The notes under the pieces: model-generated
Told to the model about the DNA's origin: nothing
Databases searched by the model: none
The model's input: only the letters and a program-made list of their open reading frames with translations
Made by a program: the position numbers and the translations under genes
In this document: piece after piece, positions 5,078 through 60,827 of the stretch
How positions within the stretch are numbered: the first letter of the stretch is position 1
How the letters are laid out: every line of letters begins with the position of its first letter
Source: Candidatus Micrarchaeia archaeon
GTDB taxonomy: Archaea; Micrarchaeota; Micrarchaeia; CABMEP01
Assembly (NCBI GenBank): GCA_038886535.1
Contig: JAVZXS010000001.1
Span: forward strand, 180,636-244,635
Reading direction: 5' to 3'
DNA: 64,000 nucleotides

Positions 5078-6055
5078 TTGTTCTTATTAGTTTCATCAAA
5101 ATTGTTTTTTCTTTTATTTATGGATTTTAAACTTTTCTTACAATATCTATATATGAGGAATAAAAGTCTAGTTGGTGCAAATTACCTCTTCAGCTTGAAT
5201 GCATTCTTTAAACTAGTAAGAATAGAACATGCGTTAATGTATGCCATTGCAGTGCTTATAGGAGCAGTTATAGTAGGAGGTATTGAAGCAGTTTCGGTAT
5301 TTATTTTAATAGGCGCATTGGCCGCTATGTTTCTTGAATTCGGCGCATTTGCGTTAAATGACTATATTGATTTAAAAGCAGATAGGATTAATGGGAGAAT
5401 TGATAGACCACTAGTTACCGGAGAGATTTCTCCATCTATGGCACTACTGATCGGCTTCTTTTCATTTATTTTTGCAAATTTGATTTCTTTTATTTATCTG
5501 CCTATCCAGGCGTTTTATATCATATTTTTATTTACTATACTATCTTTACTCTACGACTTCATTCTTAAGAATTTGCCGCTTATTGGAAATATTATAATCG
5601 CACTTACTATGGCAGTTCCATTTTTCTTTGGCGCATTCATTCTAGCATTTGAAAAAAGTATTCCATCCACTCAATTCCAGCCTGCATTGTGCCTGTCTGC
5701 AATCGCGTTTTTTGTTGGATTAGGCAGAGAAATAATAAAGGACATCGAAGACATGAAGGGAGACCAGGCTATAGGAGGTAAGACCCTCCCTATTCTTATT
5801 GGAAAACGAAACGCTTCTAGATTTGCGGTTTTACTATTTTTTATCAGCATTGTTCTTTCAATTGTTCCATTCTTTACATTCTTTTCCGGAAGACCTTTGT
5901 ATCTTACAGTTTTAATAACAGATATAATGCTTGCTGATGTTTCTTTACATGTACTAAAAGATCAATCAATTCAAAATTTGAGGAAATCAAGAAAAATGAG
6001 TCTTATTGCAATTGGAATAGGATTAATTTCCTTCCTATTAAGTTCAATCTTTTGA
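5078..6055 (+). CDS. UbiA-family prenyltransferase, probably (S)-2,3-di-O-geranylgeranylglyceryl phosphate synthase
   Basis: NDYIDLKADRINGRIDRPL fits the UbiA motif NDxxDxxxD, and a second Asp-rich motif KDIEDMKGD is present. The protein has multiple TM helices. The true start may be an internal Met. Confidence 0.7.
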   Translation: MFLLVSSKLFFLLFMDFKLFLQYLYMRNKSLVGANYLFSLNAFFKLVRIEHALMYAIAVLIGAVIVGGIEAVSVFILIGALAAMFLEFGAFALNDYIDLKADRINGRIDRPLVTGEISPSMALLIGFFSFIFANLISFIYLPIQAFYIIFLFTILSLLYDFILKNLPLIGNIIIALTMAVPFFFGAFILAFEKSIPSTQFQPALCLSAIAFFVGLGREIIKDIEDMKGDQAIGGKTLPILIGKRNASRFAVLLFFISIVLSIVPFFTFFSGRPLYLTVLITDIMLADVSLHVLKDQSIQNLRKSRKMSLIAIGIGLISFLLSSIF

Positions 6056-7930: not shown

Positions 7931-8004
7931 TTAATCCCCGCTTATTAAAGTTTATAACAATTTGTATTTTCTTAATAGCATATTTAATATTCAATTTTAT
8001 AATG

Positions 8005-9285: not shown

Positions 9286-9317
9286 TTAATCCCTTTTTAA
9301 CTTATTCCAATATTAAA

Positions 9318-9914
9318 TTACATTCCAAATATTGCAAGTACTCCTTTCTTTATAAATTCTATTCCGAATGCTGCTAGTAGCAGACCCATAAATCTTGATA
9401 TTATTTCTAATGTATTTGTACCTATTAATTTCACTATTTTATTTCCTATAATCATAACAAAGTAAGTTGTGATCAATGCGAGAATTAGTCCTAATATCGA
9501 AGGAACTAAACCATTGCTTTGAGAGATAAGTATCATTGTTGTTATGGATGCGGGTCCCGCAAGTAAAGGCGTCCCTAATAAAAGTGCTATTGTTGTCTTT
9601 TTGTCTTTTTCGTTTTTTTCTTTTATTATCTCTTGTCCTAGTACAATTTGGGTTCCAAGAAGAAACATTAGAATTCCACCTGCTATTTGAAAAGATTCAA
9701 TGGATATCCCAAATAGTTCAAGAAGTTTCATACCTAGGAAAAGTGCCACGAGCATTATTCCGCCAGCGATTATTATTCCTTCCTTCAATGTGGAATTTCT
9801 TTCCTTTTCACTCATTTTTCTTGTCATTGCTAAAAAAGGTGGAGCAGCCATAAATGGATCGAGAATTGCTAAAAGAATAATAAATACGCTTAATATCTGC
9901 GTTAAAATTTCCAT
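9318..9914 (-). CDS. MarC-family (UPF0056) integral membrane protein
   Basis: 198 aa with 6 TM helices. ILDPFMAAPPFLAMT resembles the MarC N-terminal motif. Confidence 0.55.
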   Translation of the reverse strand: MEILTQILSVFIILLAILDPFMAAPPFLAMTRKMSEKERNSTLKEGIIIAGGIMLVALFLGMKLLELFGISIESFQIAGGILMFLLGTQIVLGQEIIKEKNEKDKKTTIALLLGTPLLAGPASITTMILISQSNGLVPSILGLILALITTYFVMIIGNKIVKLIGTNTLEIISRFMGLLLAAFGIEFIKKGVLAIFGM

Positions 9915-9948
9915 TTTATCACATTAGAATCAATCAAATAAAAATAAG

Positions 9949-10022
9949 TGCGGCGGCCGGGATTTGAACCCGGGTCATGAGCTTGGAAGGCTCGCGTCCT
10001 AACCAGGCTAGACTACCGCCGC
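9949..10022 (-). tRNA. tRNA-Gly (anticodon UCC)
   Basis: Cloverleaf folded by hand. 7-bp acceptor stem GCGGCGG/CCGCCGC, T-loop GGTTCAAATCC, anticodon loop CTTCCAA. Confidence 0.85.
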
Positions 10023-10094
10023 TTCATACACCTTAATCTATAATTAAATTAGGAGTTAATATTTTTTAAACTATTCTATTTATTATTTTAAATA

Positions 10095-11186
10095 ATGAAA
10101 TTCGATGTTCTAGTTATTGGTGGAAGTGCAATAGGTGGAGCCGCTGCAGCTGCATGCTCAAAACATGGATTGAAAACTGCTATTCTCGAAGAGGATAAAG
10201 AAGTTGGAAAATATAAAAGATGCACTGCAATATGTTCTGAAAATGGTTTAAAGAAAACAAAGATTCCATATACTGATGCAATTTTAAATAAGATAAAAGG
10301 AGGAGTGATTCATTCTCCAAAAAACGAGGTCAAAATAAAGATGAAAAATAATATAGGAATTGTTTTTGACAGGCAAAAATTCGATGAAAATAGTATTGAT
10401 AGAGCATTGTCTTATGGTTCTGAATTATTTAAGGAAAAAAGGGCTATTTCATTCTATAATTTCAATAGTCATTATTCTGTATTTGCAGGAAATACATTCC
10501 ACTCAAAAATCATAGTTGGAGCAGATGGAGTAACTTCAAAAACCGCTTCAGAATTCAATTTTCCACCACTTAAGAAAATAGCTTATTGTTTTGAAAAAGA
10601 AGTAACAAACGTCGATGTTCCTCATTCGGATTTAGTGGACATATACATAGATAACGAAAATTTACCTGGCTTTTTTGGTTGGTGTGTTCCAGTTGATGAA
10701 AAAACTGTAAGAGTGGGATTTGGAGTCACAAAATTAAATAAGTTTTTAGATGCAAAAACGTTTTTCTACTCACAAAGTTCACTTAACTTTCTTAAGAAAA
10801 AGACAGCAAAAACAATAAGAAAGTTTAATGCAGCCATACCTTTAGGTCCAAGAGAAGTAACGCAAATTAAGGGCGTTCTTTTAGTTGGAGATGCAGCAGG
10901 GCAGACAAAGGCAACAACTGGCGGTGGTTTGGTTTTCGGTTCTCAATGTGCACATATTCTTGGGGAGGCAGTTTCTGATCATATCAATAAAGGTGAAAAA
11001 TTAGAGTACGAAAAGAGATGGAGGAAAGACTTCGGATCAACTTTATATCTTCATAAAATAGTTAGAAGAGGTATTGATTTAGTGCCAAATTATGTTTTAG
11101 ATTTTTCTGTTTCTTTTCTTAAAATTCCATTTATAAATAGATTGTTATCTGAAGCTGCAGATATGGATTATATAATAAGGATATGA
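10095..11186 (+). CDS. Geranylgeranyl reductase family flavoprotein (digeranylgeranylglycerophospholipid reductase-like)
   Basis: FAD-binding DVLVIGGSAIGGAAA, and GDAAGQTKATTGGGL is typical of GGR. Confidence 0.75.
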   Translation: MKFDVLVIGGSAIGGAAAAACSKHGLKTAILEEDKEVGKYKRCTAICSENGLKKTKIPYTDAILNKIKGGVIHSPKNEVKIKMKNNIGIVFDRQKFDENSIDRALSYGSELFKEKRAISFYNFNSHYSVFAGNTFHSKIIVGADGVTSKTASEFNFPPLKKIAYCFEKEVTNVDVPHSDLVDIYIDNENLPGFFGWCVPVDEKTVRVGFGVTKLNKFLDAKTFFYSQSSLNFLKKKTAKTIRKFNAAIPLGPREVTQIKGVLLVGDAAGQTKATTGGGLVFGSQCAHILGEAVSDHINKGEKLEYEKRWRKDFGSTLYLHKIVRRGIDLVPNYVLDFSVSFLKIPFINRLLSEAADMDYIIRI

Positions 11187-11190
11187 ATTT

Positions 11191-12528: not shown

Positions 12529-12619
12529 TTACTCACTAAGAAGTAATCCTTAGCAATATTTTTTAATATTACTTTCTTTATAACCTTTAAGGATTTACAA
12601 TAATCCATGGAGCGGTTTT

Positions 12620-13090
12620 ATGAAGCCTGCAACACTATGTTTCTTTTTCAGGAAAAATAATGGAGAAGAAGAGATTCTTCTTGCAATGAAAAAGAGAAGG
12701 TTTGGAGCTGGAAAATGGAATGGATATGGAGGAAAGATAGAGGAAGGCGAACCTCTTTTAGAGGCGGCATGCAGAGAAATAAAAGAAGAGAGCGGTTTAG
12801 ATGTTGAGCCTTCTTCGTTAATAAAGATTGGTGAGATTGATTTTAAAGTAAAAGATAAGCCAGAGTGGGATCAATTTGTACACGTATTCAAAGTAACTGA
12901 ATGGAATGGAGAGCCGGTAGAGACGGAAGAGATGAGGCCAAAATGGTTTAAGATAAAAGATATTCCTTACGATGAAATGTGGGAAATGGACAGGATTTGG
13001 ATTCCTTACATGTTAAAAGGAAAGTTTATAAATGCAAAATTCATATTAGATTCAGATGGAGAAAGGATATTGTATTATAATATAATTTAG
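12620..13090 (+). CDS. Nudix hydrolase
   Basis: Nudix box GGKIEEGEPLLEAACREIKEESGL. Confidence 0.8.
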   Translation: MKPATLCFFFRKNNGEEEILLAMKKRRFGAGKWNGYGGKIEEGEPLLEAACREIKEESGLDVEPSSLIKIGEIDFKVKDKPEWDQFVHVFKVTEWNGEPVETEEMRPKWFKIKDIPYDEMWEMDRIWIPYMLKGKFINAKFILDSDGERILYYNII

Positions 13091-13113
13091 TTTATTTACT
13101 TAGGGGGGAATTT

Positions 13114-21270: not shown

Positions 21271-22622
21271 TGGTGATTTGGATGGAGAATGAAATGGAGA
21301 AAATAAGTAAAAAAATTAGATTAGGCAAAAAGTTAAGTATTGCATTTATTCTCCTACTGATCCTTTCTCCATTGACGTATGCGCAAAACCAATTTGTAAT
21401 AAATTTCGGAACACTTCCATTTGGAAATTGCACTTATAATTCTCAGTGTACATCAAATCTTTGTGTAGAAGGTCAATGTGTTGCATGCACGGCAGATAAA
21501 AATTGTTCTTCAAACCTATGTGAAAACGGAATCTGTATTTCATGTTCTTCAGATTCTCAATGTAGCAGATCAACTAATTACTGTTTGAACGGTGTTTGTA
21601 CTGCTTGCTTGAGCGATTTGTCATGTTCTACAGGTCTTTGTTTGAATGGAGTATGTACAACATGTTCAAATGATATTCAATGTGCAGCAACAGGTTATCC
21701 TTGTATTTCAGGCAGATGTCAGCCATGCACGTCTGACGATCAATGCAGTGTTGGAATCTGCCAGGCTGGAGGAAGATGTAAATCCTGCAGTGAGATCGGA
21801 TGTCCAAACAACTGGATTTGTAATGCGGATACTGGAAAGTGCAGCTGCAGAAGCAATGGCCAATCATGTACATCAGGGTTAGAGTGTTGCACTGGTACAT
21901 GTAGAGCTGGAAGCTGTGCCTTATGTATACTTAATCAAGAATGTCAATCTGGGCAGGTTTGCTTAAATGGATTCTGCGTTCCAGAATCCGAAGCACAACC
22001 ATCACAACTGCCACCAGTTCCTACAACTACAAGTGGTGGAAGAAAATCTTCATCTTCAGATTATCAACAAGCGATCTCTATTCAGAGGGAAGTTGAAAGA
22101 GAGGCTGCAGCACCATTTATATACTCTATTTTCGGTGTAAGCAAAACAAAAATACAAGCAAGTGCTACATGTATAAAAGGTGCTTTATGTAGCACCAGCG
22201 CAGATTGCTGTGGTGCAGAATGTGTCAATGGCCAATGTTTATGTGCTAAAGGAGCATGTGTAACTTCAGGTGAATGCTGTACAGGTTATTGTGAAAACGG
22301 AGTATGTAGAAATCCACCTGTAATGAGTCTTTTCATTGCAGATGCCTTAAATAAACCGATAACATCCCAATTTGCATGCAGCGGTTTGATTGAAGAATGC
22401 GATCCAACTGAAACGCAATGTATTTCAATATGCAATGGTTTAACTGGTCTTTTAGCTTTGGTTTCTATAGGGTTTGGATTCTTTGTCTGGAGGGAATTTA
22501 ATCATCCAGTTCCCGGTTTGGTTGGTGTATTTGTTCCCATCTTAATAGGATTGATCACCTATCCATTTGTAGGGATAATAGTGGGAATAATAATGTTAGG
22601 ATTAATGCTTGCAAGACAATAG
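21270..22622 (+). CDS. Membrane-anchored cysteine-repeat surface protein (signal peptide, tandem Cys modules, Ser/Thr linker, C-terminal TM helices)
   Basis: Start overlaps the giant gene stop (TAATG). At least six tandem ~19-aa repeats of form C-x4-6-C-x3-4-G-x-C-x2-C. A second Cys-rich domain CCGAEC..CCTGYC follows, then two C-terminal TM helices. Confidence 0.7.
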   Translation: MVIWMENEMEKISKKIRLGKKLSIAFILLLILSPLTYAQNQFVINFGTLPFGNCTYNSQCTSNLCVEGQCVACTADKNCSSNLCENGICISCSSDSQCSRSTNYCLNGVCTACLSDLSCSTGLCLNGVCTTCSNDIQCAATGYPCISGRCQPCTSDDQCSVGICQAGGRCKSCSEIGCPNNWICNADTGKCSCRSNGQSCTSGLECCTGTCRAGSCALCILNQECQSGQVCLNGFCVPESEAQPSQLPPVPTTTSGGRKSSSSDYQQAISIQREVEREAAAPFIYSIFGVSKTKIQASATCIKGALCSTSADCCGAECVNGQCLCAKGACVTSGECCTGYCENGVCRNPPVMSLFIADALNKPITSQFACSGLIEECDPTETQCISICNGLTGLLALVSIGFGFFVWREFNHPVPGLVGVFVPILIGLITYPFVGIIVGIIMLGLMLARQ

Positions 22623-22639
22623 TTTAAAAGAGTGATAAT

Positions 22640-23161
22640 ATGTCAAAATATTCATTAGTGTTGTTTACAATTTTATTAGTATCGTTTGTATTTTCTTTAT
22701 CTGATCTTGGAGGTCCTTGTAAATATACTGGAGAGTGTAGACAAGGATTTTGTCTGAATAATACTTGTAGATTTCCTCAAGTTCTTGAAAAATATACAAT
22801 AGGTGAAAATTGCAGTTACACTGCACAGTGTAAAGATGGCTTTTGTAAAGATGGAGAGTGCATAATTCCATTGAGAGAGGAGACGCAGCTTCTTTCATTT
22901 GGAATTAAATCTGGCTGTGCAGGAATAATCGAGAACTGCACAGGTTATTTCTGTTTACTTTGTGACTTTTCATGGATACTTCTGATTGTCTCTGCAAGTA
23001 TTGCCTCATTCGTTGGAAGAAAGAGAGGAAGGTTACTGCCGGTCTTACTATTCGGTTTGCCTATGTTATTAGGTTTGATAGTTTTTCCAGTTCTTGGTTT
23101 TATGCTTGCACTTATAGAAATTTTAATTCTAGGAATAACAAAGAAAAAAGTATCTGGATAA
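22640..23161 (+). CDS. Small paralogous cysteine-repeat membrane protein
   Basis: Signal peptide. Two Cys modules (CKYTGECRQGFCLNNTC and CSYTAQCKDGFCKDGEC) of the same type as the preceding gene. C-terminal TM helices. Confidence 0.6.
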   Translation: MSKYSLVLFTILLVSFVFSLSDLGGPCKYTGECRQGFCLNNTCRFPQVLEKYTIGENCSYTAQCKDGFCKDGECIIPLREETQLLSFGIKSGCAGIIENCTGYFCLLCDFSWILLIVSASIASFVGRKRGRLLPVLLFGLPMLLGLIVFPVLGFMLALIEILILGITKKKVSG

Positions 23162-23231
23162 AATAGAGGAATCAATTATCATCTGTCGTTTTTAAACGAG
23201 AATGAATATAAAAATTTGCTTATAATATTTA

Positions 23232-24209
23232 TTGAGGCAGTATATGATAGGCGACAATATAAAAAGAGTGGAAGAGATAAGATATCTTATAAGCAAAAAG
23301 ACATTTGAATTAATGAAATACAAACTTTTAGGTAGATCAAATTTAGAAGATTTAGAGTCAGAGTTAAACTTATTAAAACAAGAAATGGCAAATCATCTAT
23401 CTTCCATTCAAGATGCAGGTTATGTATATATCTTAATTAATAAGAGAGAGATAGAAAAATTAAAAGAAGATTTCACAAAACTTTCTCAGGAGGAAAAGAT
23501 AAATGCATTTAAAGAAATAGGAAAAGGTTATGAAATACTTTTTAAATCCAATTTACTTCTTAAGAAAAACTACGAAAATAGAGAAACTATAGCTACACTC
23601 ATACTCTCTCTTCCGGCAGATGACAAGATAGTTCAGATCGTAAAGAATTATTTAGAAGGTTACTCTGATGGTGGAGAATTTAAGTTAGAAAGTCAACTTG
23701 CTTCCTCTAGGATTTCTTCACTTATTTCTTCTTTAGGTTTTATCTCTTCTTTCGAAGGTGAAAATGTTATTTTAGGAAATTCATTTAACAAAAACAAATT
23801 AAAAGAAGAAATAGTTAAAGATGTTTTTCCAATAGATAATGATATAACGGAAACTGGTTCTGATTTAAGACGTCAAGAATTTCTTGATTCGCATATTAGA
23901 GCAGAAATAAATGATATAGAAGAAACAAAGCCAATACCAGCACAAATTTTAGATAAAAATGAAAATAAAGAAAATTATAAGGAGAGTACAGGTCAAAGCC
24001 AATTATCTTCAGAAGATCTTCAACCAAATCTGACATATAATGAAGTATGTCAAAAGATAGAAGAAATTATGAATAATTACAAGATGAAAAGATGGGTTCT
24101 AGGCGCATTTAAGGACGATGAAGAAAAAAAACAATACGAAAAAATACAATCACTTTTAATCAAGCTTATTCGTCTGAAACAGTCAATGGAAGAAAAAGGG
24201 GAGAAATAG
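23232..24209 (+). CDS. Hypothetical coiled-coil protein
   Basis: Long ORF, charged and helical; no motifs I recognise. Confidence 0.4.
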   Translation: MRQYMIGDNIKRVEEIRYLISKKTFELMKYKLLGRSNLEDLESELNLLKQEMANHLSSIQDAGYVYILINKREIEKLKEDFTKLSQEEKINAFKEIGKGYEILFKSNLLLKKNYENRETIATLILSLPADDKIVQIVKNYLEGYSDGGEFKLESQLASSRISSLISSLGFISSFEGENVILGNSFNKNKLKEEIVKDVFPIDNDITETGSDLRRQEFLDSHIRAEINDIEETKPIPAQILDKNENKENYKESTGQSQLSSEDLQPNLTYNEVCQKIEEIMNNYKMKRWVLGAFKDDEEKKQYEKIQSLLIKLIRLKQSMEEKGEK

Positions 24210-24240
24210 GTAAAAAGAAACAAAAGACAAAAATAAAAGT

Positions 24241-25431
24241 TTAGAATTTTAATTGTGTACCTAGAACTAATTTTGAATCCTGTCTGTTTTCTTCGTTGTA
24301 AAGTCTGATTATTTTCTGGAGCGTATGTGTATATCCGATCTTAATCGCAAAGTTTCTTATAATCTCTCTTTTATAATAGAAATTAATTGTGTCTATAACT
24401 TCTTTTTCTAGGAAGTTATTAAATGATCCGTCTGTATCATTATATTTTCTAGTTGTTTTGGTGTACTCTCCTACAACTAAGTTCTTTCCTAATGTTATAG
24501 GTAATCTTACTCCAATTTCAGTTTTACTTGTCTTTATATCATTGTTTCTTTTGTGTGTTTCAAATACAAAATAATAAGCACCAGGTTGGCAGCTTCCAAG
24601 ATAGCATATATCCCCTTGAATTGCATATTCATCAATATCGTCTAAGGAATGATTTATAGTTCCTTTAGCCTTGATAAACCAAATTATGGGAGTTATATTT
24701 TGATTTATTATATATTGTAAATAAAATTTGTTTCCCATATAAGATGCATTCATATCTTCATTTAACATCTCGTTATTATTTTTATCTCCATATATAGTTA
24801 TTGGGTTTCCATTTACATCATAACCTATGAGTAAACCTACATCCTTACGTAAAGAGTTGTATTTCATAACCCACTTTTTCTGTATTTCTTCATTGTAGTA
24901 ACCAATTCCAAATTTTATTTTTTCATTAACCCCATCTGGCGCTATACTTGTGCCAATACCAAAAAATCCACCAGTTAATTTTGTTTCGTCATTATTTTTA
25001 TAATCGGTGTAATCTCCATATATAGATTTACCTGTATATTTTGAATCTATGGATTCTTTTCCTCTGTTTATTTCGATCTGTAAAAATGTTCTTCCAACTA
25101 CTTCATTCTTCCAATAAATAGAAACATTAGAATATGTATTTGAGACATTGTCTTTGCTATTAAAATAGTTATCTTTTTGGATTTCAGAAATATTTTTATC
25201 ATCTATATGATATTCGTATTCTATTACAGTTCCATTTTCATAATGCTCCTTTATGAATGGAGTTTTAATTGGATCTTCGGCCTTAATGTTCCTTCCAAAA
25301 ACCATCAAACTAAGACCAAGAATCCCTATTTTTGCAGCTTTCCATATTCTATTTTCTTTTCCCATATTTTTAGGTCTAACATTCTCACAATTTTTTTCAA
25401 TATTTTCCATATTCCTCCCACCAATAATCAA
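24241..25431 (-). CDS. Secreted beta-rich protein with outer-membrane-barrel-like features; likely start at the internal MGKEN (about 25365)
   Basis: Signal peptide KAAKIGILGLSLMVFG. Y/G/N-rich alternating strands (KIKFGIGYYN, VGLLIGYDVNG, FAIKIGYTHTL). Terminal residues VLGTQLKF end in Phe. Confidence 0.5.
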   Translation of the reverse strand: MIIGGRNMENIEKNCENVRPKNMGKENRIWKAAKIGILGLSLMVFGRNIKAEDPIKTPFIKEHYENGTVIEYEYHIDDKNISEIQKDNYFNSKDNVSNTYSNVSIYWKNEVVGRTFLQIEINRGKESIDSKYTGKSIYGDYTDYKNNDETKLTGGFFGIGTSIAPDGVNEKIKFGIGYYNEEIQKKWVMKYNSLRKDVGLLIGYDVNGNPITIYGDKNNNEMLNEDMNASYMGNKFYLQYIINQNITPIIWFIKAKGTINHSLDDIDEYAIQGDICYLGSCQPGAYYFVFETHKRNNDIKTSKTEIGVRLPITLGKNLVVGEYTKTTRKYNDTDGSFNNFLEKEVIDTINFYYKREIIRNFAIKIGYTHTLQKIIRLYNEENRQDSKLVLGTQLKF

Positions 25432-28121: not shown

Positions 28122-28847
28122 TTAAACTATTCTTGACAATTCCTCTATTTCTTCGAAGCTTATCGAACAGCCATTGAATTTTAGAGCATATAAAGCAGCT
28201 TTGTAAGCTTCTCTCTCAAGATCTCCAAATTTCTTGAAATACCCTTTAGATTTTGCAAGTGCAAGAATCTCACTGCTTCTTATTACATTTATTCCAGCTG
28301 TCATCTCTCTAAATCTTCTAAAAAGGAGGTCATTAATATTCATTTTAATTCTAAATTCATTTTCTATGTGCTTTTTTAATTCAAATGGTGATTCTATGAG
28401 CATTCTTGTAGTTCTTTCATCCATCAACACAAATCCAACTTTATTATCTATTGCTGTAGCTAGCATCTCTGCTTCCCCATGATTAACAAGATGAAAGGGT
28501 CTATCTGTGTAGAACATGTTATTTGTGACTCTGAGTATCTCATCATAAGTACTTTTTTCATACTTTCCAATTCTAAATGCTCCAGATTTGAGTGCTCTTT
28601 TTATTCTTATTGCTGAAAATGCATATTCTGGTTTTTTAATTGGAGTGTTTATACTTTCATCAATCACCCCTTCAGTAATGATGAGATCTCCTTTTATCTC
28701 TTTTCTTAACATCATGAGTGCACCTAAAAGACCAGCATCCGTAAGAGAAATAAGCGAAGATGAATCACAAACTACTGAATTTGGATTTATTCGCCTTTCT
28801 CTATCTTCTTTAAAATATTCTGTTCTATCAATATCTTCTCGTACCAT
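28122..28847 (-). CDS. PIN-domain nuclease-like protein with C-terminal extension
   Basis: N-terminal VVCDSSSLISLTDAGLL fits the PIN first-strand/Asp pattern. Confidence 0.45.
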   Translation of the reverse strand: MVREDIDRTEYFKEDRERRINPNSVVCDSSSLISLTDAGLLGALMMLRKEIKGDLIITEGVIDESINTPIKKPEYAFSAIRIKRALKSGAFRIGKYEKSTYDEILRVTNNMFYTDRPFHLVNHGEAEMLATAIDNKVGFVLMDERTTRMLIESPFELKKHIENEFRIKMNINDLLFRRFREMTAGINVIRSSEILALAKSKGYFKKFGDLEREAYKAALYALKFNGCSISFEEIEELSRIV

Positions 28848-29425
28848 TAAGATACCTCTTTCTTATTTCTTTCTTTAAGAATTTTCTTTGCAATATTAAA
28901 TCTTTCTTTAGCGCTTATTGTTCTTCCTACTCTATCAGACATCACTGTCTTACCTGAATAATTAAGTACTTCTTGTTTTTGTGCACCTGTTATTGAAATA
29001 GTTCTACTTAGTGACAGACCTTGTGCATATAGACTTGCAGCTATTTTTGTTCTTCCTTTTTCTATTATACCGATTATATATCTTTTATCTTTTTCATCAA
29101 AATCTGTAATTGTTTCAAGTGTTTTCCATACAGAACTTATCAGTGCAATTTCATCCTTAGATTTTGCAAATTGAACCGCCTGTGTAAGATTAATGTCTAT
29201 CTTTTGATATAGGGAAGCATTTCTAAATCTAGCCTTTACGAGAATCTTAGAAAGAGTATAGGAAAGTAAAGCTAGTGTAAAGAATAATTTTTCATCAAGA
29301 AGAATATTTTTTTCACATTTATTGTTAATTTCCCTTAATTTTTTTATATCATAATCCTTAAATGCGAGCTTGATCTGATTTATACATTCTATCATTTCTA
29401 GTTCCTTATTTATTTCTTTTATCAT
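28847..29425 (-). CDS. Hypothetical protein; its stop overlaps the start of the PIN gene
   Basis: ORF translationally coupled to the downstream PIN gene. Confidence 0.4.
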   Translation of the reverse strand: MIKEINKELEMIECINQIKLAFKDYDIKKLREINNKCEKNILLDEKLFFTLALLSYTLSKILVKARFRNASLYQKIDINLTQAVQFAKSKDEIALISSVWKTLETITDFDEKDKRYIIGIIEKGRTKIAASLYAQGLSLSRTISITGAQKQEVLNYSGKTVMSDRVGRTISAKERFNIAKKILKERNKKEVS

Positions 29426-29495
29426 GAATTGTTTTTGATGGTTATAATTTTAAATCTTCTTTTTATGCATAAATTTGTAATCAAAATAGTTCCTA

Positions 29496-29620
29496 TTTTT
29501 GGAAGCGAAAAATGTCGCTTCGACGTAAAAGAAAAAGCAAAGCTTTATAAATCTTAACTGTCATGATAGTATCATGACACATAAATTAGAATCATGATTG
29601 GTATGGTTCCAATCGTGATC
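29496..29620. promoter_or_regulatory. Cluster of inverted repeats in a divergent intergenic region (hairpin GAAGCGA-n7-TCGCTTC; perfect 21-bp palindrome TGTCATGATAGTATCATGACA; imperfect ATCATGATTGG-n7-CCAATCGTGAT)
   Basis: Palindromes read directly from the sequence. They share a TCATGA core and lie upstream of the winged-helix regulator gene. Confidence 0.5.
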
Positions 29621-29741
29621 TGTTTTGTGTGTCTTAATAGTATATGTTCATATGGGCTTAAAAAGCTTGCGGTATGGGCGACAAGGCGGAAATGCAAAAC
29701 GCATGAATGCCGGCAGATCGCCAATATAGACAAGTGGGAAT

Positions 29742-30257
29742 ATGAAACCACAAGAAAACAAAAATGAAGAGTTCGAAAATACGCTTGAATACAAGGTTGC
29801 GAATTTCAAGAAAGAGGCAAACGAAGAAATCGCAGCTCTTGAAAGAGAGATCGCTAAGCTAAGAGATCCCACCGTCCATTCCGCTCTTATGTATCTTTCA
29901 GTTAAAGAAAAGGAGAACACTAATCGATTATTAAAAAATATATACGCGAGGCTTGACCAGCTCGAGGAAAAATTGAAGCAGATGGAACAGAAATTAAGCA
30001 GCGTTGGCACTGTACCCTCAAATTCAGCGCCAGCGCTCTTGCTCTCATCAGTTGATCAAAAGATAATCGATTACATAAAAGAAAACGGTCCCTCCTCTGC
30101 AGAGACCATACAAAAGGTTTTTGCATACAAGGGAAGAAATGCCGCATCTGCAAGATTGAATAAACTTGCAACATTCGGCTATCTTGTAAAGCAGAGGGCA
30201 GGAAAAGTAATTTATTATGCTTACCCAGATAATCAAAGCGAGGCGAATTTGAGGTAG
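29742..30257 (+). CDS. Winged-helix DNA-binding protein (N-terminal coiled coil, C-terminal wHTH), in a compositionally atypical segment
   Basis: C-terminal DQKIIDYIKENGPSSAETIQKVFAYKGRNAASARLNKLATFGYLVKQRAGKVIYYA is wHTH-like. Local GC is visibly higher than the flanks. Three overlapping minus ORFs here are antisense noise. Confidence 0.55.
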   Translation: MKPQENKNEEFENTLEYKVANFKKEANEEIAALEREIAKLRDPTVHSALMYLSVKEKENTNRLLKNIYARLDQLEEKLKQMEQKLSSVGTVPSNSAPALLLSSVDQKIIDYIKENGPSSAETIQKVFAYKGRNAASARLNKLATFGYLVKQRAGKVIYYAYPDNQSEANLR

Positions 30258-30267
30258 TGTGCGAGGC

Positions 30268-30345
30268 GACAAAGAGGCGGGGGTTATGACCAACCCCCAA
30301 TCATACTTATGGGCGGGTGAGAACTCCCACACATTCCCGCCCTAC
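30268..30345 (+). terminator. Two GC-rich hairpins (GGGGGTT-n8-AACCCCC and GGGCGGG-n18-CCCGCCC) followed by a T-rich tract
   Basis: Inverted repeats read directly, sitting just after the stop of the wHTH gene. Confidence 0.4.
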
Positions 30346-30390
30346 TCTAATTTTATTTTATTACTTATTGCGATCATTGATAAAGGATTT

Positions 30391-31263
30391 TTAGTTATCT
30401 TTTTCGTTTGTTTTTCCATCTTTTTTTGATTCATCACTTTGAAATTCACCTTCGTTTTGTTTATTTTTATTTTTTTCCATTTCTATTTTTTTTGTCTTAA
30501 TCAATCGTTCTTTACCGGTCTTTAAAACATGAAATAGATGTGTTATCCAATATAGATCCATGCATTTGTTAACGAAACTTATTACTGTATTTGGTTCTTC
30601 CTTCATTAAAATATCAAATATAATAAATTCATTTTGTATTTCCTTTTTGTATTCTTTTGTCTTTTCAATTAATTCATTTATCCATTTTCTGGATTCGATA
30701 CAAGTACATATCGTATTTTTACACATATACAAATGATTAATAAATTCATGTCCTTCCTTTGTATCAAGTATATTAAATAATGGATCTATTATTTCTATTT
30801 CCGATGCATATTTATTTTTGAGGCCGATGGCATTAAGCCATCCAATTTCTTCAGGAGTAATAGTGAAAAATTTACTTCCCATTATAGAATACATTGTTCT
30901 TGTAAGTTCCCAGTAGGGTTTCTCAATCTTCTTATTTTTTTTACCAAAGAATAAATTGAATATCATCTTTGGGTTAGAACCAGAACGTCTAACTGCAGTT
31001 AATACATCTTCTGCCGCATTCATTTTTCTTTCCCATATAACAGAATTTGATTTAGCCTTTGATAACACTTCAATAAGTTTTTCCTTTTCCAATTCTTTAT
31101 AATTCACTTTAGAAAAAGTATCTCCTATACTTAGTATTATTTCTTCCACGGGAACTTGTTTTTTTAACTTCAGATAGATCTCCTTTTCTTTCGCACTTAA
31201 TTTGAAAAAAACATTTTTATCAAGTTGTCTACTATATTTTTCATTGTCAAAATTAAATTTCAT
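30391..31263 (-). CDS. Hypothetical protein
   Basis: 290-aa ORF with a K/E-rich tail. Confidence 0.4.
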   Translation of the reverse strand: MKFNFDNEKYSRQLDKNVFFKLSAKEKEIYLKLKKQVPVEEIILSIGDTFSKVNYKELEKEKLIEVLSKAKSNSVIWERKMNAAEDVLTAVRRSGSNPKMIFNLFFGKKNKKIEKPYWELTRTMYSIMGSKFFTITPEEIGWLNAIGLKNKYASEIEIIDPLFNILDTKEGHEFINHLYMCKNTICTCIESRKWINELIEKTKEYKKEIQNEFIIFDILMKEEPNTVISFVNKCMDLYWITHLFHVLKTGKERLIKTKKIEMEKNKNKQNEGEFQSDESKKDGKTNEKDN

Positions 31264-31382: not shown

Positions 31383-31457
31383 TGGGCCGGGGGAGATTTG
31401 AACTCCCGACCTCGTGATTATCAGTCACGCGCTCCAACCTGGCTAAGCTACCGGCCC
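31383..31457 (-). tRNA. tRNA-Ile (anticodon GAU)
   Basis: Acceptor GGGCCGG/CCGGCCC, anticodon arm CGTGA-CTGATAA-TCACG, T-loop GGTTCAAATCC(rc). Confidence 0.85.
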
Positions 31458-35017: not shown

Positions 35018-36058
35018 ATGAAAAGATTTATTCTATTGCTTGCTTTTTGTATGATTTTTCTTCCATCAATTCATTTACAAATAGCAAATGAGCAGCTCTT
35101 TGTAAGTATCAAATCAATAGACACGATTATTAATATAAATTCAACCACAAATTTAAGTAAAATAATCCCTAATTACGAATATATTATTCCAATAACAATT
35201 AGTTGGAATGTTCCTGATACTTCTCTAAAAAATATAAATGCGGAAAATATTACTATATTTATTAAAGCCACAATTGAAAGCGGAAATGAATTTGTCTATT
35301 TTAAAGATGACAATAAAAGAGTTAATACTAGCTATATTATACTAGTTTGTCATCTAGATAAAAAATCATTAAGTGAGTCATTATGTAGTTTTAATTCAAG
35401 CTTGACAAAATCAATAAATGCCTATGTTTATTTAAACAGTTCAAAATCAAATGAAATAAATTCAACTATACTTTTTAGTGCAAGTTTAACTCCATTTGAG
35501 GATTTTATTCCAATATATCAAGAATCTCTGTCTCTTCGAAAAGAATTGGATGAAATTAAAAAGAATGTAAACATTTCAGATCCAGTACTAGAAACTAAAA
35601 TTAACGAAATAGAGGAAGCCATCAACGCTTTTCATGTAGAAGAAGCAAGAACAGGAATTACAGATCTTAATTTAAAGACAGGAAATCTACTTGGTTTATT
35701 TTCTTTGATACCTGCTAAAATTAATTCACTTTTGATGTCGCTCTTTAGTTTCTTAGCTCCAACTTCAAAAGTTTATATTCCAATTTTCTTATCAATTATA
35801 ATAATTATATCTGCTCTGATTCTAAATCTAAGAAGAGGATCAAAATACGGAATAATAATAGCTGCAATATTGGTTATTTTTGCATCTTTATTTTCATTAT
35901 TAGACCAATTAATTTTGATTTTAATTGATTTATTACTAGTTATATTAATTCTTTCTATCATATATGCCAGAAAAAATAACGGTAAGAGAAGATTCAGAGC
36001 AAGCGACAATTATTTAGATTCTGATTATGAGGAACTTATAAAGAGAAGAAATAGGTAA
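35018..36058 (+). CDS. Secreted membrane protein (signal peptide, C-terminal TM helices)
   Basis: Hydrophobic N terminus and three C-terminal hydrophobic helices. Confidence 0.45.
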   Translation: MKRFILLLAFCMIFLPSIHLQIANEQLFVSIKSIDTIININSTTNLSKIIPNYEYIIPITISWNVPDTSLKNINAENITIFIKATIESGNEFVYFKDDNKRVNTSYIILVCHLDKKSLSESLCSFNSSLTKSINAYVYLNSSKSNEINSTILFSASLTPFEDFIPIYQESLSLRKELDEIKKNVNISDPVLETKINEIEEAINAFHVEEARTGITDLNLKTGNLLGLFSLIPAKINSLLMSLFSFLAPTSKVYIPIFLSIIIIISALILNLRRGSKYGIIIAAILVIFASLFSLLDQLILILIDLLLVILILSIIYARKNNGKRRFRASDNYLDSDYEELIKRRNR

Positions 36059-36651: not shown

Positions 36652-36679
36652 ATTTTCTCCACCTTCGCAATGTTTTTAG

Positions 36680-36754
36680 CGGGCCCGAGGGGATTTGAAC
36701 CCCTGACCTGCCGGTTAAAAGCCGGACGCTCTGGCCAAGCTGAGCTACGGGCCC
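36680..36754 (-). tRNA. tRNA-Lys (anticodon UUU)
   Basis: Acceptor GGGCCCG/CGGGCCC, anticodon arm TCCGG-CTTTTAA-CCGGC, T-loop GGTTCAAATCC(rc). Confidence 0.8.
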
Positions 36755-44181: not shown

Positions 44182-44252
44182 GCCAGGTTGGCAGAGCGGC
44201 GATGCACCCGCCTGCAGAGCGGGAAAGGGGGGTTCGACTCCCTCACCTGGCT
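44182..44252 (+). tRNA. tRNA-Cys (anticodon GCA)
   Basis: Acceptor GCCAGGT/ACCTGGC, anticodon arm CCCGC-CTGCAGA-GCGGG, T-arm GGGGG-TTCGACT-CCCTC. Confidence 0.8.
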
Positions 44253-47030: not shown

Positions 47031-48269
47031 TTGCCGAATAGAGATAGAAATATTTATATATTTCATCTGATTGTTTTAATCATGGGAATGTGGGAGTTCT
47101 TTAAGAAGAGAAAGGAACAAGAAAGATTAGACAAGAAAGATAGAGATCCATTCCAGAATAGGATTTCAGATTCAACTAATTTCAATACTAATTACTATAA
47201 TTTCGGCGTACCAAAAGAAGAGAGATATTATTTTTCAAATAATATTCCAACTCCAGAACAGATTGATTCTGTCAACTTAAATATACCGATAGATATTTCT
47301 AAAATGATAACCACATCTTCAACTCTTGATCATAGGATAGGTTCTATGATCCTTTCAAATATATTTTTAATTCCAAAAAATATGAAGAGAGTAGAAGATT
47401 CTTGGCCTTATTATCATGAAAACATTGAGACTAATAAGAAAATTCAGATAGAACTTATGGAAAGAAAAGCAAAGGAAGATCTAATTGCATTGAAGGGTAA
47501 GGGAAAGAAAGTAAGAAATCAATTCTATCAATTATTAAGAGAAAAAAGAGAGATCATGAATAACTATTATGAAGAATATTTAAAGATATTAAGTTCAAAT
47601 ATACAGAAAATAAGAGTAGAAATAATACCTATTGAAAAAGAAATTTCAGAATCAAAATACAAACTTAATGATATAAAACAGAAATTGAATGGAAATCGGG
47701 TAATGCAGTTGGAAAAGATCAAAGAATATAACCAGCTTTTAGATTCAAATGTTAAATCACTCACAAAAATAAAAGATGCCGTTAAAAATATTCTTTCTTT
47801 AAAGAAATTATGGCAGGCAGCACATATAGTTGCATCATATATAGTTGCATTTTTCGGTGCAACTGAATTGGTCAAGACAGAACAATTTAAATTATTTATC
47901 AAAGACAAACTAGCAAAATTTTCATTAGTTGGCGACTTTATATCAGCTAACTTTACCATAGTACAAGGTCTTGCTGCCGCATTAATCTTTTTAGTTACAG
48001 TTGGCATGTATGATAAATTTGTAATCGATTATCTAAAGAGAAGAGCTATTAAAAGAGAAATAAATGAATTAGCAAAGAAAGAAAGGGAATATACAGAGGA
48101 ACTTAATTCTATCGAACAAAAGATATCAGTACTAAAAGAAGAGAGAAATAATAAAGTAAAGTTAGAGATTCAAAGGACTGAACAAGATCTTGAATTTCTT
48201 TATGAAGAATACAAATCTCAAATGTCAGATATCCAAAAGCAGATGTCAGTGTTATTAAAAGAAGAATAG
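47031..48269 (+). CDS. Hypothetical coiled-coil protein with two internal hydrophobic helices
   Basis: ORF only. The true start is probably the internal MGMWEFF. Confidence 0.4.
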   Translation: MPNRDRNIYIFHLIVLIMGMWEFFKKRKEQERLDKKDRDPFQNRISDSTNFNTNYYNFGVPKEERYYFSNNIPTPEQIDSVNLNIPIDISKMITTSSTLDHRIGSMILSNIFLIPKNMKRVEDSWPYYHENIETNKKIQIELMERKAKEDLIALKGKGKKVRNQFYQLLREKREIMNNYYEEYLKILSSNIQKIRVEIIPIEKEISESKYKLNDIKQKLNGNRVMQLEKIKEYNQLLDSNVKSLTKIKDAVKNILSLKKLWQAAHIVASYIVAFFGATELVKTEQFKLFIKDKLAKFSLVGDFISANFTIVQGLAAALIFLVTVGMYDKFVIDYLKRRAIKREINELAKKEREYTEELNSIEQKISVLKEERNNKVKLEIQRTEQDLEFLYEEYKSQMSDIQKQMSVLLKEE

Positions 48270-49399: not shown

Positions 49400-50035
49400 T
49401 TATCTAATCGCCTTTAGAATTCTTTGTATTGCACTTATATTAGATAAGATCGCGAGTATTATAATTAAATACTGAAAAATAGTCACATTAAACTGTGCTA
49501 TAATTAAACTTAAAGTGTAAAGTCCTACTCTCTCAGCTCTTTCAAGTATTCCGCCTCTAAGTTCCTTTTTTAACTTCTTTTCTGCTGCAGCTGATTTTAC
49601 ATATGTAGTTATCATAGATCCAAATAAAAACAAAAAGATCCACGCTTGAAAATCAAATATGATAGGTTGCCACTGGATAAATACGAGTGGAAATATAAAG
49701 AGAAATTCATTATACCTGTCAACTACAGTATCTAAAAACGCACCGAATCTAGTAACTTTTTTAGTTTTCCTTGCAACTGCACCATCAATCAAATCTATTA
49801 AGCCAGAAACAGTTATTAAAAATGCACCAACTAAAAAATATCTATTGATTATGGAAAGAAATGCTGTAATTGCAACAGCTAGAGATGCAATAGTCCAAGT
49901 GTTTGGAGATATATTTAATTTTGCAAAATTTATTCCTATCCATTCTCTAATTTTTTTAAGTGTTTTATTTTCAGATTTTTCAAAAAGCATTTTATCACTC
50001 ATATAACTAATAACATTCATTAAGATAGTGTTCAC
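49400..50035 (-). CDS. CDP-alcohol phosphatidyltransferase (archaetidyl-inositol-phosphate or -serine synthase-like)
   Basis: Motif DLIDGAVARKTKKVTRFGAFLDTVVDR fits D-G-x2-A-R-x8-G-x3-D-x3-D. Confidence 0.75.
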   Translation of the reverse strand: MNTILMNVISYMSDKMLFEKSENKTLKKIREWIGINFAKLNISPNTWTIASLAVAITAFLSIINRYFLVGAFLITVSGLIDLIDGAVARKTKKVTRFGAFLDTVVDRYNEFLFIFPLVFIQWQPIIFDFQAWIFLFLFGSMITTYVKSAAAEKKLKKELRGGILERAERVGLYTLSLIIAQFNVTIFQYLIIILAILSNISAIQRILKAIR

Positions 50036-57162: not shown

Positions 57163-57450
57163 TTATTTTTTTATTTTACTCATCAATTCTGTTAAATCTT
57201 TCCCACTTTTTCCTTTTGGGAATACATTTCCATTAGGTGTAAATACAGCTATCTGAAGTTCTTCTGCGAGCCTAACTGCTTCTTTCATGTCTATTATCCT
57301 ATCAGTAAATAGAACTGGATATTCGCCATAAGGTTCTTTTATTATTTTTACTGTAAATATTATCCTTTGAAACATTCCTTTTCTGTGCACTCTGTATTCG
57401 CCTTTTCCATTTCTTAGAACTTCATCTAAAGTTGGTTCACCCTTTTCCAT
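57163..57450 (-). CDS. Hypothetical protein
   Basis: 95-aa ORF. Confidence 0.35.
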   Translation of the reverse strand: MEKGEPTLDEVLRNGKGEYRVHRKGMFQRIIFTVKIIKEPYGEYPVLFTDRIIDMKEAVRLAEELQIAVFTPNGNVFPKGKSGKDLTELMSKIKK

Positions 57451-57492
57451 AAAAAATCACATTTTATAATTATTTAAATGCAAAACATCTAT

Positions 57493-58170
57493 TTATCTTA
57501 AACATGCATTTACATTCGCTTCTATTTCTTCTTTACTCGGCATGATCGTTCCATATCTTTGATTTAGATATGTAATATTTTCAATAACAAAATTTCTCTT
57601 CTTACATATTATTTCTATCATTACTGGTTCTGAGTACGATATAGAAATGATAAGTTCGGGACAAAAAATACCATCACATTTTTGATAATATAATTCAGAT
57701 CTTGTAACTTCTCCTTCCTTTATTGTTGGGAAAAATATCGTAAAAGGAATGAATAACGGATTAATTTTAACACTTTTTTGTGTAATATCTTTTAATTTCC
57801 ATCCAGAAAAGTTATTATTATAAAACTCAATAACTGAACTGTAATTAATATTCGATATCATATATCCAATCGAATATATGTAAGAAGTACCTGTATAAAT
57901 GCTTTCCATTTTTTCTTCGTGAATATCACTAATATTTATATCATATATACCGATTGTCGACCATTTTCTTTCTGCATTTTTTATTATAGGAACATCTTTA
58001 AGGTCACCTTTAATTTCATCGATTGCTGTCGCATTTTCTTCGTATGCATTTATTTTATCGGTTTGATCTTTTTCCATTTTATCTAATAAATTTTTGCTAT
58101 TATCAGAAATAGATTTTCCTATACAACCAACAAAAAGAACTGCCAGTATAATAAAAATCAATTTTTTCAT
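57493..58170 (-). CDS. Putative secreted lipoprotein
   Basis: Signal peptide with lipobox-like FVGC. Confidence 0.45.
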   Translation of the reverse strand: MKKLIFIILAVLFVGCIGKSISDNSKNLLDKMEKDQTDKINAYEENATAIDEIKGDLKDVPIIKNAERKWSTIGIYDINISDIHEEKMESIYTGTSYIYSIGYMISNINYSSVIEFYNNNFSGWKLKDITQKSVKINPLFIPFTIFFPTIKEGEVTRSELYYQKCDGIFCPELIISISYSEPVMIEIICKKRNFVIENITYLNQRYGTIMPSKEEIEANVNACLR

Positions 58171-58321
58171 GACAAATATTTTTTTATAAAAATTTATATT
58201 TTTTTCTTAAAGGATCGCGTATAAAAAAATAACAGGACACAGTATAAATTTTATTTACATACTTTAGCTGCTTAATGGAAAAGTATATATATTTAAATCG
58301 TTCCTTAATTTTGTGATTTTT

Positions 58322-59560
58322 ATGAAGAACATATCTATTTTAGGTTCTACAGGAAGTATAGGTACTCAGACATTAGACGTTATAAGAAATCATAAGAATA
58401 AATTTAGAGTAGTGGGTTTAGCTGCATATGGTACTGATAAAGATATAGATCTTATGGTTGAGCAGATACATGAATTTAAACCTAAAATCGTATCAATGTA
58501 CAGAACCGATGCAGCGATTAAGCTTAAAGAAAGATTGATGCATGATAATTTAGGTTATGGTCAAAAGATAGTGATCCTATCTGGTAATGAAGGTCTTATT
58601 TCAGTTTCTACTTTCCCTATGGTTGATACAGTTGTAACTGCAGTTGTTGGAAGTGTCGGCTTAATTCCTACACTAGAGGCAATAAAGAAAAAGAAAAATA
58701 TAGCTCTTGCAAACAAAGAAACATTAGTGTGTGCTGGAAGCATAGTTATGGAAAATGCAAAAAAGTACGGAGTAAAAATTATGCCAATAGATAGCGAACA
58801 TTCAGCAATTTTTCAGTCTTTACAAGGTAATAAAAAGGAGCAAGTAAAGAGAATAATATTAACATGTTCAGGAGGTCCATTTAGAGATGAAAAATTATGG
58901 CCCGCAGAAAAAATAAATGAAGCGACTCGAGAACAAGCACTTAAACATCCAACCTGGAATATGGGTGGAAAGATTACTATTGACAGTGCAACACTCATGA
59001 ATAAAGGTTTAGAGGTTATAGAAGCTCATTGGCTTTATAATATTCCTTATGAACAAATTTCAGTTGTAATACACCCTCAGTCTATAATTCATTCAATGGT
59101 TGAATATGTTGATGGTTCTATAATGGCTCAGATTGGTGTTCACGATATGCGTATTCCGATTCAATATGCGTTATCCTATCCAGATAGATTACCAAGCGGT
59201 GATTATGCATTTTTAGATTTGATTAAAGTTTGTAATCTTACATTTTTTGAACCAGATACAGTCAGATTTCCAGCTCTATTATATGCATACGAAGCAGGCA
59301 AGATCGGCGGAACAATGCCTACAGTTATGAATGCAGCAAATGAAGTAGCAGTTGTAGAATATTTCTTACAAGGAAAGATTAAATTCGGTGACATAATAAG
59401 AGTAGTAAGACATACGATGGATGTCCATAAGCATACAGTTGTTCAGAATCCAAACCTTCAAGACATTCTTCAAGCAGATATATGGGCAAGAGAACACGTT
59501 CGTTCGGTTTTAAATGTAGTTATACAAGATAAAAGTTGGAAAAATATAAATTCATTCTAA
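58322..59560 (+). CDS. dxr: 1-deoxy-D-xylulose-5-phosphate reductoisomerase homologue
   Basis: NADPH-binding ILGSTGSIGTQTLDVI, LANKETLVCAG, metal and substrate residues MPIDSEHSAIFQ, and full-length colinearity with DXR. The listed ORF starts at a GTG 9 nt upstream. Confidence 0.8.
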   Translation: MKNISILGSTGSIGTQTLDVIRNHKNKFRVVGLAAYGTDKDIDLMVEQIHEFKPKIVSMYRTDAAIKLKERLMHDNLGYGQKIVILSGNEGLISVSTFPMVDTVVTAVVGSVGLIPTLEAIKKKKNIALANKETLVCAGSIVMENAKKYGVKIMPIDSEHSAIFQSLQGNKKEQVKRIILTCSGGPFRDEKLWPAEKINEATREQALKHPTWNMGGKITIDSATLMNKGLEVIEAHWLYNIPYEQISVVIHPQSIIHSMVEYVDGSIMAQIGVHDMRIPIQYALSYPDRLPSGDYAFLDLIKVCNLTFFEPDTVRFPALLYAYEAGKIGGTMPTVMNAANEVAVVEYFLQGKIKFGDIIRVVRHTMDVHKHTVVQNPNLQDILQADIWAREHVRSVLNVVIQDKSWKNINSF

Positions 59561-59640: not shown

Positions 59641-60021
59641 TTATTGTTCTTTCTTCCATAATCCATGGATGTTACAGTATTCTCTTGCATTTATTTTCTT
59701 TGCATTTATTTTGAATTCAGCCTCAGGAGTTTGACCTGGTTTTAGGTAATTTCTATATATTTTATCATCTGCAAGCACTTCTATAAATTCAATGTAATGT
59801 TCGGGTTCCATTGGATGTGGAATAGAACCTATTTTAACTTTAAAGCCACCTCTAATCTTTTCGATTACAGGTACATGTTTTTCATACCCTTGATCTTCTG
59901 TTTTTTCTTCTAGTTTTTCCATATTCTTATTGCAACAGACCAAAGTTCCAACTCCTGCATGAGCTATTTCAACTATATTTCCACATACACTGCATTTATA
60001 TATCTGATTAAGTTCTGTCAT
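59641..60021 (-). CDS. dfx: Desulfoferrodoxin (2Fe superoxide reductase)
   Basis: N-terminal desulforedoxin CSVCGN..LVCC. SOR centre motifs KHVPVIE and EYCNIHGLW. Confidence 0.85.
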
Positions 60022-60047: not shown

Positions 60048-60650
60048 TCAATATTCTTCACACTTCAATTGATAGAAAGCTTTAGGATGGTCACAAGATG
60101 GACATTTTTCAGGAGGGAATTTTCCAAAGTGTACATAACCACACTCTCTACATACCCACCAAACTTTATCGTTCTTATTAAAGAATGTACCTTTTTCAAG
60201 CTGTTCAAGTATCTTTTTATATCGTTCTTCATGGTGCTCTTCAGCTTTAGCGATGGCCCTTAATCTCTGTGCTATTTCTTTTAACCCTTCCTTTTCAGCT
60301 ATGTCAGCGAATTCAGGATACATTTTTGCATATTCATAGTTTTCTCCTGCGATTGCAGCTTTAAGATTATCGATAGTATTTCCGAATACGGTTGGAGCGG
60401 ATGCCTCAACTTTTATTTCATTGTACTTCTCTATCTTTTCTCCTCTCTCAGCAGCTTTTTTCTTCAGTTCATTTATCAGTTTAAATAGCCAACTTGCATG
60501 TTCTCTCTCATTATCTGCAGTTATAAGGAATATTTCTGCAATTTGCTCATATCCTTCATTTCTTGCCACTTTCGCATAGAAAGTATATCTATTTCTTGCT
60601 TGACTTTCACCTATAAATGCCTTCGCTAAATTTTCAATCGTCTTCTCCAT
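60048..60650 (-). CDS. rbr: Rubrerythrin (likely start at MEKTIENL)
   Basis: Di-iron motifs ENLAKAFIGESQARNRY and ..NEREHA.. plus a C-terminal rubredoxin domain CRECGY..CPSC. Confidence 0.85.
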   Translation of the reverse strand: MEKTIENLAKAFIGESQARNRYTFYAKVARNEGYEQIAEIFLITADNEREHASWLFKLINELKKKAAERGEKIEKYNEIKVEASAPTVFGNTIDNLKAAIAGENYEYAKMYPEFADIAEKEGLKEIAQRLRAIAKAEEHHEERYKKILEQLEKGTFFNKNDKVWWVCRECGYVHFGKFPPEKCPSCDHPKAFYQLKCEEY

Positions 60651-60827
60651 TCCAACACCTCCAAAATTAGACATATATATTTGATTGAAAATGTTCATAA
60701 ATATATCTATAACTTAATTTGTGATGTTCCTGATGTAAAAGATAAATTAAGCGAGGTATAGTAATATTTATAAATCTAATATAATATTATATATTTAACG
60801 ATTTTTAGATCGTTTCCCGGCAAAGCG

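Follow-up and report, generated by a model that had tools for sequence, protein, structure and literature searches.

MEP-pathway genes in archaea are relevant to the 'lipid divide' and to the question of how, and whether, DPANN symbionts make their own membranes. A few DPANN archaea have been reported to possess MEP enzymes, which were attributed to horizontal gene transfer (HGT; Hoshino and Gaucher 2018, PMC6107057), and the pathway was found to be widespread, with co-located genes, in a clade of 52 Woesearchaeota, in a study that also cites an earlier report from 2018 (Castelle et al. 2021, PMC8204110); the woesearchaeal dxr is most related to Firmicutes (Huang et al. 2021, PMC8421398). In light of these three studies, the initial annotation of the present locus started from a premise, archaeal isoprenoid synthesis via mevalonate, that no longer holds for DPANN. 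A 2025 study (PMC12892359) reports the MEP pathway in the Micrarchaeota orders Norongarragalinales, Zaosheniarchaeales and Micrarchaeales, with most of the genes except dxs acquired horizontally. MEP genes are therefore already known in this archaeal group, in DPANN since 2018 and in Zaosheniarchaeales since 2025.

The dxr gene described here lies in a 64,000-nucleotide stretch of archaeal DNA (hereafter, the window). Its lineage and MAG collection (PRJNA544494) are those covered by PMC12892359, it leads to the same conclusion of an HGT-derived MEP pathway, and it has a counterpart 76% identical at the DXR level in a MAG of that dataset. Because the pathway has been published for the order and the protein already carries a DXR annotation in GenBank, the finding as such is known. 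What is added is genomic detail, namely, a solitary dxr locked beside a ribosomal-protein operon over deep divergence, a position that the available text of PMC12892359 does not describe, and a related archaeon in which the same type of dxr is embedded in a full, mosaic-looking cluster. Compared with Woesearchaeota and other DPANN, the window dxr is likewise of a bacterial type attributable to bacterial transfer, and the Firmicutes affinity of the woesearchaeal gene resembles the clostridial bacterial matches obtained here, whereas the MEP genes of those archaea are clustered and the window dxr stands alone.

Judged by its sequence, the window gene is a genuine, intact dxr, encoding the second enzyme of the MEP pathway. 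The initial annotation had placed a full-length, motif-intact DXR at this position, and the ORF, the three Pfam domains and the motifs (Table 1) all bear this out. The ATG at 58322, which yields the N-terminus MKNISILGSTGSIG, is a likelier start than the alternative in-frame GTG at 58313 because MKNISILGSTGSIG aligns with solved DXRs from residue 1. Pfam searches returned PF02670 (E = 3e-43, residues 4-139), PF08436 (E = 1e-39, residues 153-239) and PF13288 (E = 5e-39, residues 271-391), so that the NADPH-binding, catalytic and C-terminal helical domains of DXR are each represented over approximately the full profile length. The protein passed the cut-offs of the NCBIfam equivalog models TIGR00243 Dxr (513.4 bits, cut-off 315.7) and NF009114 (522.8 bits, cut-off 461) and scored below that of the narrower model NF003938 (434, cut-off 515). 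All 29 distinct PDB sequences matched at E <= 1e-20 are DXRs, the best solved structure being 6mh4 (365 bits).

Relative to bacterial DXR/IspC (E. coli Dxr, PDB 1k5h; TIGR00243), the window protein shares the domain architecture, the NADPH motif, the metal triad, the phosphate-binding residues and the flap, and its length is within ~20 residues. It differs in that its host is archaeal, its identity to the nearest bacterial sequences is only 55-57% and there are no adjacent partner genes of bacterial type. The metal triad of the E. coli enzyme, D150, E152 and E231, and its substrate-phosphate ligands, S186, S222, N227 and K228, have counterparts in D157, E159 and E231 and in S183, S222, N227 and K228 of the window protein, respectively. 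Neither these residues nor those of the flap vary among the 25 members of the DXR clade defined below, with the sole exception of S222, which is replaced by C in three of them. The H, W and M of the flexible flap, H209, W212 and M214 in E. coli, are invariant in 121 of 121 aligned sequences. The predicted reaction would thus be the NADPH- and metal-dependent conversion of 1-deoxy-D-xylulose 5-phosphate (DXP) to 2-C-methyl-D-erythritol 4-phosphate (MEP).

Table 1. Features of the window and sequence motifs of the encoded DXR (positions in the window unless given as residues; scores against model cut-offs).
Feature	Position	Strand	Remarks
dxr	58322..59560	+	ATG to stop, 412 aa
GSTGSIG (NADPH motif)	DXR residues 8-14		conserved in the clade, minor variation at T10
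LANKE	DXR residue 129
DSEH	DXR residue 157
SGGPF	DXR residue 183
HPTWNMG (flap)	DXR residues 209-215
DSATLMNKGLE	DXR residue 221
HPQS	DXR residue 251
DMRIP	DXR residue 275
TATA-like A/T-rich element aaagtatatatattt	58282..58296	+	~27-40 nt upstream of the dxr ATG
Desulfoferrodoxin	59641-60021	-	between dxr and the L3 operon
Rubrerythrin	60048-60698	-	between dxr and the L3 operon
Archaeal L3-L4-L23-L2-S19-L22-S3 operon	directly downstream of the dxr region
MCM, aIF2-beta, aIF1A, RIO kinase, NAC	within the window		archaeal markers
PriL, PriS, GINS, aIF2-alpha, PAC2	within the window		archaeal markers
L44e, S27e, Nop10	within the window		archaeal markers
Nre, ERCC4 nuclease, Rad50	within the window
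UbiA-family prenyltransferase	5078..6055	+	nearest to DGGGP-synthase-type models; NF009523 236 bits, cut-off 269
Geranylgeranyl-reductase-family protein	10095..11186	+	TIGR02032 171 bits, cut-off 159, passed
CDP-alcohol phosphatidyltransferase	49400..50035	-	nearest to archaetidylinositol-phosphate synthase; NF040950 145 bits, cut-off 180
tRNA Gly-TCC	9948-10022		ARAGORN, no introns
tRNA Ile-GAT	31383-31457		ARAGORN, no introns
tRNA Lys-TTT	36679-36754		ARAGORN, no introns
tRNA Cys-GCA	44182-44252		ARAGORN, no introns

The surroundings of dxr are archaeal, as the initial annotation had noted, with MCM, aIF2, primase and ribosomal-operon genes all identified in the window. The gene order CDP-alcohol transferase-PriL-PriS-GINS-L44e-S27e-aIF2-alpha-Nop10-PAC2 is conserved, and after a handful of small genes that vary it continues with dxr and the L3 operon. 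This block recurs in relatives with DXRs 73% (GCA_020723065.1), 69%, 62% and 57% identical to that of the window; the last of these contigs, CABMEP010000004.1, belongs to the genome that gave the order its name. A shorter contig, with a DXR 63% identical, likewise has dxr just upstream of the L3 operon. In all syntenic relatives dxr is solitary, with the PAC2/aIF2-alpha block on one side and the L3 operon on the other. The block conserved across the order includes the CDP-alcohol phosphatidyltransferase, and the adjacency of desulfoferrodoxin and rubrerythrin to dxr is kept in the closer relatives (the window subgroup; L009, L010 and L014). The GC-rich CABMEP01 subgroup carries instead one or two PfkB-family sugar kinases in two of three contigs (L012, L013), with MgtC upstream.

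The nearest DXR homologues are annotated as Candidatus Micrarchaeia or Micrarchaeota, and the archaeal relatives (57-96% identity) rank ahead of every bacterial match, the best of which are Clostridia (55-57%). In neighbour-joining (NJ) distance trees, for which the sampling was biased toward the query, the window DXR and P0001-P0024 formed one clade (bootstrap support 93%), which splits into the window subgroup (98%) and the CABMEP01 subgroup (92%) and is set apart from Clostridia as well as from a separate Nanoarchaeota/Woesearchaeota clade (100%). The grouping of all archaeal DXRs together with one Patescibacteria sequence received a support of only 32%, and the NJ trees single out no bacterial donor; a bacterial direction of transfer is inferred from the overwhelmingly bacterial distribution of the family and from the literature. 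Several DXR loci (L016, L018, L054, L029), whose entries name either an 'uncultured Methanosarcinales archaeon' or a 'Thaumarchaeota archaeon', group with the DXRs of Nanoarchaeota/Woesearchaeota or Iainarchaeum; the NCBI bin names may be wrong, or MEP genes may extend beyond DPANN.

In a scan of genome contigs keyed to six exact 8-residue peptides of the window DXR, the closest of the species-representative genomes among the matches listed was DRTY-6_201705_bins_89 (JAVZCX, L014), which encodes a DXR 76% identical to that of the window, displays the same ORF layout and has been classified as o__CABMEP01; f__CABMEP01; g__DTQF01 in two papers. The order CABMEP01 has been named Zaosheniarchaeales, with a reported GC content of 32-43%, in PMC12892359; that of the window is ~32%. 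A contig sharing the window DXR (JAWAAD, see below) falls within the accession range JAVYKE-JAWCTO, which corresponds to 2,949 archaeal MAGs from Tengchong hot springs (PRJNA544494). From synteny, DXR phylogeny and GC content, the host is most probably a small hot-spring DPANN archaeon of the class Micrarchaeia, order CABMEP01 (Zaosheniarchaeales). The genomes sharing the dxr synteny (L009-L014 and the window) have GC values of 0.32-0.58, a range that is very wide for a single order.

Two further explanations of dxr on this contig involve an artefact or a recent event. In the first, a bacterial fragment would have been joined to archaeal DNA during assembly or binning; the initial annotation had itself raised the possibility that the contig is chimeric or bacterial at this point. 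Apart from the bacterial affinity of the gene family, nothing speaks for such an artefact, to which we assign next to no probability. The GC content stays within 0.28-0.37 throughout the window with no break at dxr, and archaeal genes flank dxr on both sides within 3 kb. An identical DXR with the same neighbours is present on the 78-kb NCBI contig JAWAAD010000004.1 (GCA_038885315.1) and in two independent Logan assemblies (SRR27730032, SRR27730033), so that the junctions are common to three independent assemblies; an identical DXR is on record in three NCBI MAGs (MEM4133820.1, MEM4159737.1 and MEM4218807.1). The longest contig bearing it measures 278 kb, and coordinate offsets place the window on that contig rather than on JAWAAD010000004.1. 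The position of dxr is, moreover, repeated in at least 8 further contigs of related archaea. The independent assemblies, the recurring neighbourhood and the uniform GC content led us to reject a chimera. A recent, strain-specific transfer from a bacterium such as Clostridium, for which one could invoke the 55-57% identity to the top bacterial matches, is only marginally less improbable: the archaeal relatives are closer than any bacterium and group in one clade whose synteny is conserved, and the composition of dxr fits the host. We rejected this scenario as well. Since the proteins of the clade have diverged to 57% identity while the gene occupies one and the same position, dxr is an old, fixed acquisition rather than a recent arrival. 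The horizontal acquisition proposed in the initial annotation is thus supported by the NJ phylogeny and the synteny, although not as a recent event but as an old one that became fixed in a whole archaeal order. Taken together, the comparisons indicate that dxr is an old resident of the lineage, vertically inherited and under purifying selection for DXR activity. An ancestor of the lineage would have taken the gene from bacteria long ago, after which it would have been passed on vertically, fixed just upstream of the ribosomal-protein L3 operon.

The question of which pathway this enzyme serves turns on the other MEP genes. Annotation of the 64-kb window with Pfam and NCBIfam revealed no dxs and none of ispD-H, in agreement with the initial annotation, which had seen no neighbouring MEP genes, and the syntenic relatives showed no other MEP gene within ~10 kb of their dxr. 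A related complete cluster is nevertheless present on the 360-kb JGI contig Ga0373626_0000011 (L004), where it is surrounded by the archaeal genes Hjc, PTH2, S3Ae and TrmB. This cluster (7151-15873) consists of dxs, ispE, dxr, ispG, ispD, ispF and an ispH-NUDIX fusion, together with a polyprenyl synthase, and all seven MEP enzymes score above the TIGRFAM equivalog cut-offs. Its DXR (P0022) belongs to the same clade as that of the window, to which it is 62% identical, and is 71% identical to the syntenic P0018. The two loci differ in organization and composition: in L004, dxr is part of a full MEP cluster in a locus of 57% GC, whereas in the window it is alone at 32% GC. Within the L004 cluster, a dxr of the Micrarchaeia type is combined with an IspG that shares 65-76% identity with proteins of Patescibacteria/Parcubacteria and an IspH nearest to other Micrarchaeota among the matches listed; the cluster looks mosaic, and its genes may stem from different donors. 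The fusion of IspH with a C-terminal NUDIX-like domain (L004 13441-14685 (-), P0122 and P0400) is represented by three deep lineages with ~48% mutual identity, one of which (P0122) is annotated as Micrarchaeota; a simple regular-expression check of the fused domains found no canonical Nudix box.

Using the IspH and IspG of L004 as queries, we found no protein traceable to the MAGs of this lineage among the best 120-150 matches listed, in which the names are those of cluster representatives. The IspG list is uninformative because the best 120 matches ran to Patescibacteria. The IspH matches listed included Micrarchaeota of other projects only, and none of the IspH candidates listed has a MEM accession, as the records of the window DXR do. 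Two of these candidates were discarded, P0128 owing to its bacterial genomic context and P0124 as belonging to an unrelated MAG. A search of a library of representatives at 50% identity with the Micrarchaeota IspH P0123 yielded one further IspH-NUDIX fusion, P0400, for which the JGI scan gave a contig of 1.5 kb; its GC3 of 0.56 departs from the 0.71-0.78 of the syntenic dxr contigs named in the same Ga03152xx range. Screening the listed matches for the amino-acid composition of low-GC genomes produced no MEP candidate either; composition cannot discriminate among candidates in an order whose GC content runs from 32 to 58%.

PMC12892359 nonetheless credits Zaosheniarchaeales with a complete bacterial MEP pathway, in an order-level summary in which a gene is counted even if it is present in one MAG. 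We favour, with a probability of about 77%, a complete but dispersed MEP pathway that includes the window dxr, the other six genes being inferred from this order-level statement. The enzyme would catalyse step 2 of a bacterial-type pathway whose remaining genes are scattered elsewhere in the genome, and the pathway would feed IPP and DMAPP to archaeal enzymes of ether-lipid synthesis whose genes lie in the window as well; the UbiA-family prenyltransferase, the geranylgeranyl-reductase-family protein and the CDP-alcohol phosphatidyltransferase are candidate consumers of isoprenoid precursors. The hybrid isoprenoid route contemplated in the initial annotation is, in this sense, plausible, and it has already been reported for Micrarchaeota (PMC12892359).

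Two other functions have to be weighed against a dispersed pathway. A reduced symbiont could have kept dxr as its only MEP gene, with DXP or MEP being exchanged with a host or neighbour, or with the enzyme playing a non-isoprenoid role, while IPP is obtained via mevalonate/IPK or from the host. The gene is solitary throughout the lineage, no IspH or IspG could be traced to these MAGs among the matches listed, and PMC12892359 portrays Zaosheniarchaeales as host-dependent archaea with few genes and mentions a route to IPP based on IPK, all of which would fit. However, the same source gives the order a complete MEP pathway, a member of the DXR clade has the full pathway (L004), and the negative IspH and IspG searches are low-powered; catalytic residues that remain invariant down to 57% identity are hard to explain if there is no pathway to feed. 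We consider such a reduced symbiont unlikely, and a shade less likely still the stricter version, in which dxr would be the sole MEP gene retained, under strong purifying selection, and fixed beside the ribosomal-protein operon through the history of the order. If true, this would point to a metabolic hand-off between symbiont and host or partner, with DXP coming in or MEP going out, or else to an unrecognised role of DXR. The second possibility, also put forward in the initial annotation, is that the protein acts on another substrate, either as a neofunctionalised homologue of DXR or as an enzyme of the DXR-like (DRL) type. DRL enzymes, which occur in Brucella and some other bacteria, form a sequence family distinct from DXR; they catalyse the same reaction but are not known to carry the DXR Pfam domain architecture. 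The solitary genomic position would be compatible with a changed function, as would the length of the protein, which at 412 aa slightly exceeds that of typical DXRs and includes a short C-terminal extension. The Dxr equivalog cut-offs were passed, though, the metal, phosphate and flap residues are kept in the clade, and the PDB matches at E <= 1e-20 are without exception DXRs, making a different substrate very improbable; with the canonical DXR domains present and the equivalog thresholds exceeded, the protein is a canonical DXR and not a DRL.

Several further features of the window are worth recording. The gap between dxr and the divergent upstream ORF is 151 nt long and contains aaagtatatatattt, which may represent an archaeal-type promoter, a weak candidate because the GC content of the genome is 31%. 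A giant ORF of 2,718 aa (13114-21270 (+)) contains NosD/beta-helix, bacterial Ig-like and carboxypeptidase-regulatory-like domains, and its predicted product is probably a surface or adhesion protein; the ORF probably breaks assemblies, because the 78-kb NCBI contig starts inside it, at approximately position 19424 of the window. Sizeable ORFs with no Pfam or NCBIfam match are located at 3973-5022, 21270-25431, 28122-31263, 35018-36058, 47031-48269 and 57163-58170. No record matches the exact protein sequence encoded by 24241-25428 (-), probably owing to a differing start-codon call.
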